Part shown: positions 33,146 through 33,492 of the stretch, in pieces
Layout of the letters: each line of letters opens with the position of its first letter
Numbering within the stretch: the stretch's first letter is position 1
IMG/VR virus record: IMGVR_UViG_3300045988_150173
Location: 1 to 36,248 of that record
Length of the DNA stretch: 36,248 bases
Direction: 5' to 3' (one strand)
DNA from: a virus
The notes under the pieces: generated by a model
The model's input: only the letters and a program-made list of their open reading frames with translations
Databases searched by the model: none
What the model was told of the DNA's origin: nothing
Translations under genes and position numbers: made by a program

Positions 33146-33161
33146 TTTGAAAACCTCCTCG

Positions 33162-33170
33162 TGGTATAAT
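33162..33170 (+). promoter_or_regulatory. Extended -10 promoter TGgTATAAT on the plus strand
   Basis: A perfect TATAAT (33165-33170) is preceded by TGn. It faces away from the minus-strand RBS next to it. Confidence 0.55.
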
Positions 33171-33176
33171 CGAGGA

Positions 33177-33245
33177 AACGAATAGTTGTGTGAATTTAAT
33201 TCGTTTCCGAGGCGTCGACAGTGTCATTGTCGGCGTCTTTTTTTT
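33177..33245 (+). ncRNA. Candidate antisense small RNA (about 70 nt) with two stem-loops and a T8 terminator
   Basis: Hairpin 1 pairs GGAAACGAAT (33174-33183) with ATTCGTTTCC (33199-33208). Hairpin 2 has a 10-bp stem (33211-33220 with 33228-33237), followed by TTTTTTTT at 33238-33245. No ORF is present, and the surrounding genes are on the opposite strand. Confidence 0.5.
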
Positions 33246-33388
33246 GCGTCTGTATACATTGACTGCGGTGCGTACCGTAGCAGCAGCACCAGTAGCACCA
33301 TTGCTAAGAACAGTCCTGCGTTAAACATTCCGTAGAAGAAGCTAATCGTCATTGCGACGGACACGGTTGCTGTGAGTGCGTGGCTCAT
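33224..33388 (-). CDS. Hydrophobic peptide with a basic tail (54 aa): type I toxin-like or holin-like
   Basis: Hand-translated as MSHALTATVSVAMTISFFYGMFNAGLFLAMVLLVLLLRYAPQSMYTDAKKRRRQ. It has a TGATGA overlap with the upstream peptide. Its 3' 22 nt are antisense to the candidate sRNA. Confidence 0.45.
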   Translation of the reverse strand: MSHALTATVSVAMTISFFYGMFNAGLFLAMVLLVLLLRYAPQSMYTDAKKRRRQ

Positions 33389-33492
33389 CAGTTATCATCT
33401 CCCTTCTTTTCAAAAATCAGACTGTAAATTACGGCTCCTAGCAGGACTACTGTAATGACCAGTGCCGGCCAGGCAAATGCTAAGCTGTCCAT
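33388..33492 (-). CDS. Small single-TM peptide (34 aa)
   Basis: Hand-translated as MDSLAFAWPALVITVVLLGAVIYSLIFEKKGDDN. A GGAGGTG RBS lies 6 nt upstream. Confidence 0.45.
   Translation of the reverse strand: MDSLAFAWPALVITVVLLGAVIYSLIFEKKGDDN

Follow-up and report, generated by a model that had tools for sequence, protein, structure and literature searches.

A putative antisense RNA gene with the layout of lambda OOP in the early lytic operon of a temperate Limosilactobacillus siphovirus

To our knowledge, almost every phage antisense RNA characterised so far is from an enterobacterial phage. In lambda, the 77-nt OOP RNA starts from a promoter where the replication gene begins, terminates inside cII and shares 52 nt with the 3' end of cII (PMC5869508); the OOP target is harmful when over-made, and OOP suppresses this harm (PMC5869508; also PMC7067206, PMC12197685). 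In P22, an intra-operon promoter gives rise to the 68/69-nt sar antisense RNA of the immI arc-ant region, whose pairing partner is intercistronic (PMC12197685). The words Gram-positive, Bacillus, Lactobacillus and Lactococcus are all absent from a 2025 review of phage-derived sRNAs (PMC12197685). In Bacillus subtilis, RNase III is reported to promote the decay of the duplex in 3'-overlapping type I pairs (PMC5848175, PMC3834814, PMC3531473), and the SPβ pair yonT/SR6 carries the toxin on a polycistronic mRNA, with an antisense RNA of about 100 nt lying over the toxin 3' end and the 5' end of the next gene (PMC5848175). In the Lactobacillaceae, Lpt/RNAII of Lacticaseibacillus plasmids is the only described antisense-controlled small membrane peptide (PMC5608710, PMC6811638).

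The window analysed here is a stretch of viral DNA of 36,248 nt (IMG/VR record IMGVR_UViG_3300045988_150173). It probably contains, on the evidence of its sequence, a cis-encoded antisense sRNA gene of a temperate Limosilactobacillus siphovirus, with the layout of lambda OOP (Table 1). The type of phage control element is known, and the family seen here is new. The unit runs on the plus strand against the minus-strand early lytic operon, and occupies the spacer between the conserved gene of a 63-aa membrane protein and the replication/recombination module, where genes for Gp157, an AAA_24 protein, a helicase and a primase follow downstream on the minus strand.

Table 1. Predicted features of the antisense unit and of the surrounding region (window positions)
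Feature	Position	Strand	Remarks
Extended -10 element TGGTATAAT	33162..33170	+	Read in sequence; predicted promoter of the antisense RNA
5' stem-loop (hairpin 1)	33174..33208	+	Perfect 10-bp stem, hypervariable loop
Predicted non-coding antisense sRNA	33175..33245	+	About 68-71 nt; 5' end placed by the -10 box and 3' end by the terminator
Intrinsic terminator hairpin	33209..33239	+	14 pairs according to the scanner; 10-bp core 33211-33220 with 33228-33237
U-tract T8 (A8 run of the peptide gene)	33238..33245	+	End of the terminator
54-aa ORF	33224..33388	-	Frameshifted allele of the 63-aa membrane-protein gene (A8 for A7)
Remainder of the ancestral 63-aa frame	33196..33223	-	Out of frame in the window; stop TAA 33196-33198
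34-aa membrane mini-ORF	33388..33492	-	Strong Shine-Dalgarno (GGAGGTGA)
88-aa early gene, downstream	32879..33145	-	Ribosome-binding site 15-20 nt beyond the predicted sRNA 5' end
Cro-like gene	34441-34698	-	
CI-like gene	34817-35170	+	
ImmA-like gene	35185-35586	+	

An initial annotation had placed a plus-strand unit with a promoter, two hairpins and a run of T within this block of minus-strand genes, and every one of these features is found at its position. The promoter, the start site and the termination of the unit are all deduced from sequence. In the 5' stem-loop, GGAAACGAAT (33174-33183) is fully paired with ATTCGTTTCC (33199-33208), as had been claimed, and the hairpin begins right at the predicted transcription start, as expected of a stabilising 5' stem-loop. 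The coordinates, the 10 bp and the T8 of the terminator also stand, except that its stem is not entirely Watson-Crick, because the pairs G33212·U33236 and U33215·G33233 are G·U. The suggested folding check gave -31.9 kcal/mol for the 75-nt plus-strand RNA with its two hairpins (z = -6.1), and 0 of 200 shuffled sequences folded as well. Only two terminators of such quality occur in 6.2 kb, and only two runs of at least seven T in the 36-kb window, this terminator and its T8 being one of each. The unit contains no complete ORF on the plus strand, in agreement with the annotation; plus-strand ORFs with TTG or GTG starts open at 33186 and 33190 and continue beyond the terminator. In silico, it is a short ORF-less unit with its own promoter and intrinsic terminator, as in the OOP class; again as in that class, the gene opposite it belongs to the early operon, contributes its 3' end to the overlap, contains the terminator and is followed by the replication module. 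A search of the whole window against Rfam at gathering thresholds returned zero matches, and a permissive search of 33100-33520 gave only noise (best E-value >1), the presence of OOP itself in Rfam being unconfirmed. Within the window, a second copy or trans targets of the RNA were sought, with chance matches of at most 9 nt as the only result, and in a duplex-energy scan the cis site alone rose above background.

The gene facing the unit required the main correction. The ORF of 54 aa with a basic tail is present in the window as annotated, but the family to which it belongs has 63 aa and an acidic tail (KKDADNDTVDASETN). The 54-aa form arises from a +1 frameshift in a homopolymer, A8 instead of A7, and deleting one A restores a frame ending in KKDADNDTVDASETN and a stop, the same tail as in the family member P0002. 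The antisense overlap of 22 nt that had been proposed was therefore too short: in the 63-aa frame it is about 49 nt, and the peptide-coding sequence extends over the terminator hairpin and over the 3' arm of hairpin 1, which encodes ETN. The out-of-frame remainder in the window is wholly covered by the antisense RNA. The peptide has a hydrophobic stretch at approximately residues 5-37 followed by a charged tail. The core is under purifying selection (pN/pS 0.27, pS 0.49), and the tail has a pN/pS of 0.72, with residues that covary by base pairing (D/GAC-V/GTC, T/ACG-R/CGT, S/AGT-T/ACT, D/GAT-I/ATC). Since several natural copies (the window, L045 and L046) are frameshifted in the tail, the overlap region is not essential for the protein.

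The peptide gene is the constant element of these loci, and the gene downstream of it is variable. The position of the 88-aa gene is taken by at least five different genes among relatives, so that this gene is a variable neighbour outside the conserved module, and Gp157, Gam or Sak, and helicase genes come next in all loci. On the other side, the stop of the 34-aa ORF overlaps the peptide ATG (TGATG), as had been noted; this ORF is replaced by other genes in L002, L004, L008, L010, L012, L015, L017, L024 and L025. The 34-aa peptide thus lies outside the conserved core, as it is missing from about one third of the relatives. Elsewhere in the window, a second unit of the same design lies just upstream of int (36068-36153, minus strand), which may point to a wider use of short antisense RNAs at operon junctions.

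By analogy, OOP appears to be the closest described system, with SPβ yonT/SR6 as another close one, and an OOP-like element is the best reading of the locus. Both OOP and the RNA predicted here are short and non-coding (77 nt and about 70 nt), and each opposes the early lytic operon of its temperate phage. The promoter of either unit is found at the replication-gene junction, here just upstream of the replication/recombination module, the intrinsic terminator lies within the 3' coding region of the upstream gene, and the overlaps are similar (52 nt for OOP and about 49 nt here). The two units have no sequence or structural homology, however, and the present one belongs to a Gram-positive Lactobacillaceae phage. 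Its target would be a membrane protein of 63 aa in which no helix-turn-helix is found, as opposed to the HTH transcription activator of lysogeny, and its promoter is an extended -10 element lacking a -35 box, with no sign of control by LexA or a repressor. The sar RNA of P22 resembles it in size, in having a promoter inside an operon and in intercistronic pairing, but sar acts on ant by covering its ribosome-binding site and blocking the initiation of translation, whereas the overlap here is with the 3' end of the upstream cistron.

The initial annotation had left a choice between a type I toxin-antitoxin-like and an OOP-like module; the OOP-like geometry was accurate, and the toxin-antitoxin label was not earned. 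A true type I system, in which the 63-aa peptide (54 aa here) would be the toxin and the antisense RNA its labile antitoxin, would stabilise the prophage or kill cells after its loss or disturbance. Several features agree with this possibility. The peptide combines a small size (63 aa, and 54 aa in the window, for a usual maximum of roughly 60 aa) and hydrophobicity with a charged tail, the antisense RNA predicted for its 3' end is perfectly complementary and conserved, and the locus is in a prophage. Lactobacilli do own such systems, for example Lpt (PMC5608710), although this 29-aa Fst-like toxin is plasmid-borne, has its own promoter and is unrelated in sequence. SPβ yonT/SR6 is a near precedent, with the peptide on a polycistronic mRNA and the antisense RNA reaching over its 3' end towards the next cistron (PMC5848175), and yonT/SR6, bsrG/SR4 and txpA/RatA share with the present locus the prophage location and a small hydrophobic target (58 aa for YonT). 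The Bacillus toxins have promoters of their own and are expressed in the lysogen, whereas the peptide gene here sits inside a repressed early operon. Post-segregational killing requires a stable, independently made toxin mRNA. In our case a consensus scan, which an unusual internal promoter could escape, revealed no promoter-like site for the peptide gene; in every locus this gene is part of the early lytic operon, and its ATG overlaps the stop of whatever gene precedes it. The peptide is therefore expressed only with the repressed early operon. Furthermore, searches of Pfam, NCBIfam, PHROGs and PADLOC gave nothing significant for either small peptide, with no match to known toxin families (Fst/Ldr, Hok, TxpA/BsrG, Lpt and others) and no homology to the Bacillus type I toxins. 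Type I loci are usually mobile and autonomous, but the peptide family is limited to one narrow phage lineage and one genomic position. Altogether, we regard a genuine type I toxin-antitoxin system as unlikely.

The OOP-like reading gains its strength from the comparison of relatives. Because GenBank phages gave no DNA match, whether searched at high or at low stringency, the relatives were sought through the peptide, which yielded 35 related loci with 26 distinct segments; an exhaustive profile search of the peptide returned only six representatives, so there were no distant relatives to exploit. In the 16 distinct class A relatives, TCGTGGTATAAT is unchanged (16/16, pairwise diversity 0.000). 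It forms part of an invariant block of 12 nt around the -10 box in non-coding DNA, the non-coding flanks of which have a diversity of 0.39-0.44. No -35 hexamer is recognisable for this promoter, and a two-hexamer scan omits the site. The motif TGNTATAAT occurs five times in the window for 1.16 expected, a number reached in 0 of 100 shuffles; one of the five sites is a terminal duplicate, and another, at 34784-34792, shows the same promoter style at the position of the CI-like repressor promoter. A promoter-like sequence on the minus strand (TTCACA-17-GATTAT, 33194-33166) was discarded, as its -35 falls in the hypervariable loop and is unconserved.

Hairpin 1 behaves in a similar manner, with a diversity of 0.000 in its non-coding arm and 0.013 in the other, for 0.442 in its loop. 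The loops of the two hairpins (0.44 and 0.49) are about as diverse as the silent sites of the adjacent gene (0.49). The sole change in the stem is a G-C to G·U substitution, on the plus strand, in one relative (L027). There is no covariation in this hairpin; the stem merely stays the same, and part of the constraint on its 3' arm comes from coding. A scan of viral contigs for the motif formed by the promoter and hairpin 1 gave seven true matches, all adjoining the peptide gene, and two chance ones, L041 and L044, which had been candidates for units lacking the peptide gene and proved to be chance matches in unrelated DNA. In class B relatives, the promoter region and hairpin 1 are swapped for unrelated sequence, which has a TGTTATAAT of its own some 36 nt before the same terminator. 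In class C it is one arm of the terminator that has given way to an HNH endonuclease gene, the promoter and hairpin 1 being kept, so that the unit can be broken without loss of the phage. Among relatives the -10 box, invariant in class A, is conserved and the terminator covaries; hairpin 1 is absent from class B.

The terminator gives the clearest view of the constraint. The final dozen or so codons of the peptide gene, together with its Lys-Lys codons, supply the stem and the U-tract. Nine distinct stem versions exist among relatives, and five of the ten pairs are altered on both sides, in 19 cells; all of its cells are nevertheless paired on the plus strand, as are all 320 pair cells (100%) of the predicted RNA, whereas slid controls pair at 34-54% and 0 of 500 shuffles match the observed pairing and covariation. 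On the mRNA strand, only 77.5% of the cells are paired and every sequence (12 of 12) has A·C at two positions, since all the non-Watson-Crick pairs of the plus strand are G·U and become A·C mismatches on the other strand; the folding energy is correspondingly -19.2 kcal/mol there, against the -31.9 kcal/mol of the plus strand. The U-tract varies from T5 to T8. The Lys codons at this place are always AAA, while the phage prefers AAG (425 to 182 AAA); judging from this codon usage, the tract is kept through AAA-AAA codons against the AAG preference. A terminator on the minus strand was considered and rejected, as neither hairpin has a U-tract after it in this direction and the scan gives no such site. 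The earlier claim of a strand-specific terminator is hence borne out, and is strengthened by the G·U versus A·C asymmetry; as it acts on the plus strand only, lytic transcription would read through. These patterns indicate that selection acts on the antisense unit across the 35 related loci, and strongly back the earlier proposal of a convergent, strand-specific and ORF-less unit facing a small membrane-peptide gene.

Could the terminator be the only functional part? The locus might be a one-way transcriptional insulator that stops stray plus-strand transcription arising in the lytic genes before it enters the switch region, with TGGTATAAT incidental and no functional sRNA. The terminator is indeed the best-supported part, through its covariation and strand asymmetry, the promoter lacks a -35 element, and promoter and terminator are uncoupled in class C. 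An insulator, however, would not account for the invariant 12-nt block with the -10 box in otherwise variable non-coding DNA, for the presence of TGTTATAAT at an equivalent distance in the independent class B sequence, or for an invariant 5' hairpin that starts at the predicted transcription start. We consider this explanation very improbable.

The A-run raises another question, namely whether the element works in the mRNA, as a processing or stability hairpin or as a stimulator of -1 frameshifting or slippage, giving two tail isoforms (acidic, 63 aa; basic, 54 aa). In most alleles the hairpin directly follows an in-phase slippery heptamer (A_AAA_AAA or A_AAA_AAG), the -1 frame of the A7 allele ends in KKRRRQ and a stop, which is exactly the product of the window, and A6, A7 and A8 alleles recur in nature. 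Yet the helix folds far more weakly on this strand, where two or three of its positions are obligate A·C mismatches. Frameshift stimulators usually lie 5-9 nt from the slippery site, but the hairpin is only 0-1 nt after the A-run. Moreover, L021 (GAA AAA) and L018 (CAA AAA) have no slippery heptamer and keep the hairpin and the U-tract, and the invariant -10 box would be left unexplained. On account of the mismatches, the spacing and the heptamer-less tail types, programmed frameshifting was rejected as a function of the family as a whole, and an mRNA-strand element of any of these kinds seems extremely unlikely. Just as improbable is a DNA-level element (a mosaic-boundary or recombination sequence, a homing-endonuclease target or a single-stranded DNA priming hairpin), although the module does mark a mosaic junction, with five or more different genes downstream, HNH/NUMOD4 insertions fall precisely within or next to it, and G·T pairs are tolerated in single-stranded DNA hairpins as well. 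A recombination or endonuclease site should keep its sequence and not its pairing, which all nine stem versions retain, and a U-tract right after the stem together with a consensus -10 box are features of transcription.

Returning to the OOP-like reading, we propose the following scenario. The -35-independent extended -10 promoter would yield an RNA of about 70 nt, opening with the 10-bp stem-loop and ending in the intrinsic terminator. Exact copies of an operator-like box (AAAAGCGTWAT) are found in the switch region only, with none near 33162; since the promoter has no repressor-operator box nearby, the sRNA is probably made constitutively, lysogens included. It would be perfectly complementary to any polycistronic mRNA of the early operon, and the resulting duplex of about 70 nt, which takes in the intercistronic spacer and the end of the peptide ORF, would be cut by RNase III. 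Such a cut would remove the stop codon and the 3' end from the peptide cistron, and would also uncouple or destabilise the downstream replication genes. As the conserved partner is the peptide gene and not the variable downstream gene, the primary target is likely to be the membrane protein, which is presumably harmful to the host when expressed at the wrong time. The regulation would have a threshold: leaky early transcription in the lysogen, or transcription from a superinfecting relative, would be silenced, and full induction would outrun the sRNA, with convergent transcription occluding its promoter.

One could also imagine that the sRNA is an RNA-based determinant of type-specific immunity or incompatibility among competing Limosilactobacillus prophages, the resident sRNA silencing the early operon of a superinfecting phage with the same stem/loop version. 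We hold this to be a decidedly improbable extension. If true, it would explain the nine or more compensated versions of the terminator stem, the hypervariable loop of hairpin 1 and a C-terminal tail that is a passenger of the RNA, as its pN/pS and its pairing covariation would have it.

With this unit, the phages of the Lactobacillaceae, which are relevant to gut and oral ecology and to probiotic strains, would have a well-supported regulator of the OOP type. It would also provide a clean natural case of overlapping constraints, in which the terminator hairpin of one strand lies inside the coding sequence of the other, a protein tail visibly evolves under the rules of RNA pairing, and the functional strand may be read from the sequence alone through the asymmetry between G·U and A·C. 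Finally, the 9-nt promoter may offer a concrete handle on how leaky early transcription is buffered in a Gram-positive lysogen.

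The first ~119 nt of the window (1-119) are identical to the last ~119 nt (36130-36248); the assembly is therefore circularly closed with overlapping termini and represents a complete temperate phage genome of ~36.1 kb. This genome, whose main features are collected in the table, is that of a temperate siphovirus. Within the early lytic operon, the predicted sRNA unit separates the switch-proximal genes from the replication/recombination module. Three of the four operator-like boxes are found in the cI-cro intergenic region; the fourth, a distal one, lies ~300 bp away where the cro-like gene has its 3' end, and could permit a looping arrangement. 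No such box was found near the sRNA promoter.

Features of the phage genome and of the two ORF-less units
Feature	Position	Strand	Remarks
Integrase gene	48-1142	+	
GH25 lysin, large terminase, primase, helicase, AAA_24 protein and Gp157 genes		-	
109-aa ORF	12892-13221	+	
Extended −10 box, TGGTATAAT	33162-33170	+	direct reading of the region
Hairpin 1 stem, GGAAACGAAT with ATTCGTTTCC	33174-33183 with 33199-33208	+	perfect pairing, direct reading
Terminator stem, GGCGTCGACA with TGTCGGCGTC	33211-33220 with 33228-33237	+	10 pairs, 2/10 G·U
T8 run after terminator stem	33238-33245	+	
142-aa gene	33865-34293	+	hydrophobic N-terminus; phrog_4989 (function unknown)
Cro-like HTH gene	34441-34698	-	facing CI-like repressor gene
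Operator-like boxes, AAAAGCGT(A/T)AT	34453-34463, 34712-34722 (-), 34749-34759, 34770-34780		n = 4
CI-like repressor gene	34817-35170	+	
ImmA-like M78 peptidase gene	35185-35586	+	
Zinc-finger gene	35639-36067	+	last of lysogeny operon
Second unit, terminator	36105-36074	-	14 pairs, then U6
Second unit, 5' hairpin, GGGUUGAUA/UAUCAACCC		-	9-bp stem
Second unit, TGATATAAT, preceded by −35-like TTGTCC	36145-36153	-	

Direct reading of the region confirmed the promoter, hairpin and T8 coordinates of the initial annotation, and its description of the minus-strand ORFs in the window agrees with our ORF reading. The sRNA promoter is a pure extended −10 promoter and is missing from the list of the consensus scanner because it has no −35 hexamer. 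The scanner scored the terminator at 14 pairs, one of only two that good within 6.2 kb, and found no minus-strand terminator at the locus. When folded, the 75-nt plus-strand RNA forms two hairpins (−31.9 kcal/mol, z = −6.1). The motif TGNTATAAT occurs 5 times in the window for 1.16 expected; one copy is a terminal duplicate, and another (34784-34792) stands exactly where a promoter for the CI-like repressor would be expected, so that the phage employs this promoter style on the lysogeny strand. A 5-bp inverted repeat, CCTCG/CGAGG (33157-33161, 33171-33175), exactly flanks the −10 box of the sRNA and on the mRNA strand would partly mask the Shine-Dalgarno sequence of the 88-aa gene that follows; in its place, CCTGA...TCAGG is present in most relatives, where it surrounds the RBS of whichever gene lies downstream.

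Homologues of the 54-aa ORF form 65 clusters, drawn from Limosilactobacillus oris and gut and oral metagenomes, and nearly all of these proteins have 63 aa and an acidic tail, ...KKDADNDTVDASETN. Removal of one A from the A8 run of the window restores exactly this tail, with a stop at 33196-33198. Therefore, the basic tail KKRRRQ, initially described as part of the peptide, is a frameshift product, and the 54-aa form is a frameshifted allele of the 63-aa protein. Read in the frame of the family, the stretch forming the terminator hairpin codes for DADNDTVDA and that forming the 3' hairpin 1 arm for ETN, which brings the overlap between sRNA and ORF from the 22 nt first proposed to about 49 nt. 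Most natural copies carry A7 or A6GG and stay in frame at 63 aa; the A8 allele (54 aa, basic tail) is found in the window and, independently and on another tail background, in locus L045, and the A6 allele of L046 gives a 78-aa read-through. Most in-frame alleles contain an in-phase slippery heptamer (A_AAA_AAA or A_AAA_AAG), and the variation in run length may come from mutation, phase variation, slippage or assembly error. Over codons 1-47, a pN/pS of 0.27 (pS = 0.49) indicates that the peptide gene is real. With 6 representatives in 1.84 billion clusters, this is a very narrow family, and it had no match in Pfam, PHROG, NCBIfam or PADLOC.

We then compared 35 related loci, comprising 26 distinct segment versions in three classes. 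Class A contains the complete module seen in the window, followed by any of at least five different downstream genes. Among 16 distinct aligned class A copies, pairwise diversity was 0.000 in both TCGTGGTATAAT (the −10 box) and the non-coding arm of hairpin 1, 0.013 in its coding arm, 0.19-0.20 in the terminator arms, 0.39 upstream of the −10 box, and 0.442 and 0.494 in the loops of hairpin 1 and of the terminator, respectively. Drift in the loops matches the silent-site rate; in the promoter and stems it does not. Class B (L010, L017-L020) retains the terminator, and its hairpin 1 and promoter region are exchanged for unrelated sequence; ~36 nt ahead of the terminator, the antisense strand presents TGTTATAAT, which by its sequence is a second, independent occurrence of the promoter motif. 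In class C (L001, L006, L013, and partly L012 and L015), a 200-aa NUMOD4/HNH endonuclease ORF lies within the 63-aa peptide gene (about 3140-3745 in L001/L006/L013), starting at ...TDENE* and ending through the old peptide tail, ...DNRTVDASETN*; hairpin 1 and the −10 box are retained and one terminator arm is lost. In L024-L026, an HNH gene stands immediately upstream of the peptide gene (1844/1946-2500).

The proposed structure shows standard pairs in 320/320 pair cells, and 5 of the 10 terminator pairs, in 19 cells, are changed on both sides, giving nine distinct terminator versions among the relatives. Neither the pairing nor the covariation was matched by any of 500 shuffles, and slid controls paired at 34-54%. 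All non-Watson-Crick pairs of both helices are G·U on the plus strand of the window, fixed at two positions and occasional at three more, and each becomes an A·C mismatch on the mRNA strand. Read on that strand, the same helix is 77.5% paired, with two positions unpaired in 12/12 sequences, and the folding energy is −19.2 against −31.9 kcal/mol, which bears out the earlier proposal of a plus-strand-specific terminator. The protein tail has a pN/pS of 0.72, and its residues co-vary according to the pairing (D/GAC with V/GTC, T/ACG with R/CGT, S/AGT with T/ACT, D/GAT with I/ATC). The Lys-Lys codons of the U-tract are always AAA, against a phage preference for AAG (425 to 182). In the A6 allele, where the frame is already broken, one G·U is changed to U-A. 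The G·U/A·C asymmetry, the tail covariation and the AAA codons argue that the selected structure is a plus-strand intrinsic terminator within a minus-strand coding sequence.

A second ORF-less unit of the same design is present on the minus strand (36068-36153, surrounding region to 36174), in the interval that separates the zinc-finger gene from the integrase RBS/ATG. Its folding energy is −36.6 kcal/mol (z = −5.7), and its TGATATAAT is duplicated at 16-24 by the terminal overlap. This unit is 99% conserved in L030 (335-426) and L031. In L036 (~7617-7730) and L039 (~1080-1194), the TATAAT and terminator are retained and the 5' stem is exchanged for a different self-complementary pair, GGGTACGA/TCGTACCC, a compensatory change. 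We regard the second unit as a candidate sRNA, antisense or regulatory, located upstream of int.

Two other regions of the genome carry opposite-strand genes. The 142-aa gene, preceded by an extended −10-like motif (TGGTAAAAT, 33831-33839), is flanked by the cro-like gene and the early genes and is oriented opposite to the early lytic operon. It had no PADLOC, Pfam or NCBIfam match and is a candidate moron-type or superinfection-exclusion gene; L022 and L023 have an opposite-strand 142-aa gene at the equivalent position. A gap in the minus-strand structural genes (12794-13246) contains the 109-aa ORF, which may be another such insert; a T7 at 12818, upstream of this ORF, is the one further long T-run of the window.

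The initial annotation suggested a type I toxin-antitoxin-like or OOP-like module. The lambda OOP RNA has 77 nt, of which 52 overlap cII; its terminator tO lies within cII and its promoter pO where O begins, and the RNA suppresses CII toxicity (PMC5869508). The layout described here agrees with it almost point for point; here, though, a membrane peptide is targeted, and no homology was found. Among toxin-antitoxin systems, yonT/SR6 of SPβ is a further close analogue, with the toxin on a polycistronic mRNA and a 100-nt antisense RNA overlapping the toxin 3' end and the 5' end of the next gene (PMC5848175). Two tested features, an autonomous toxin transcription unit and a known toxin family, speak against type I membership: no promoter-like site was found for the peptide gene, whose start codon in relatives overlaps the stop of the upstream gene, whichever gene that is, and the peptide matched no known toxin family. 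We therefore classify the unit as an OOP-like cis-antisense sRNA, a candidate that may act like a type I antitoxin.

The 5' stem-loop begins at the predicted start site of the sRNA, and in a motif scan the promoter and hairpin 1 motif was strictly associated with the peptide gene, the gene downstream of the unit being variable among relatives. No trans target was found in the window. We propose that the ~70-nt antisense RNA would be made constitutively and would pair with early polycistronic transcripts over a stretch that takes in the peptide ORF's 3' end and the spacer between the cistrons. The resulting duplex would be a substrate for RNase III, and leaky early expression in the lysogen would thereby be buffered. 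Upon induction, early transcripts would swamp the sRNA, and convergent transcription would occlude its promoter.
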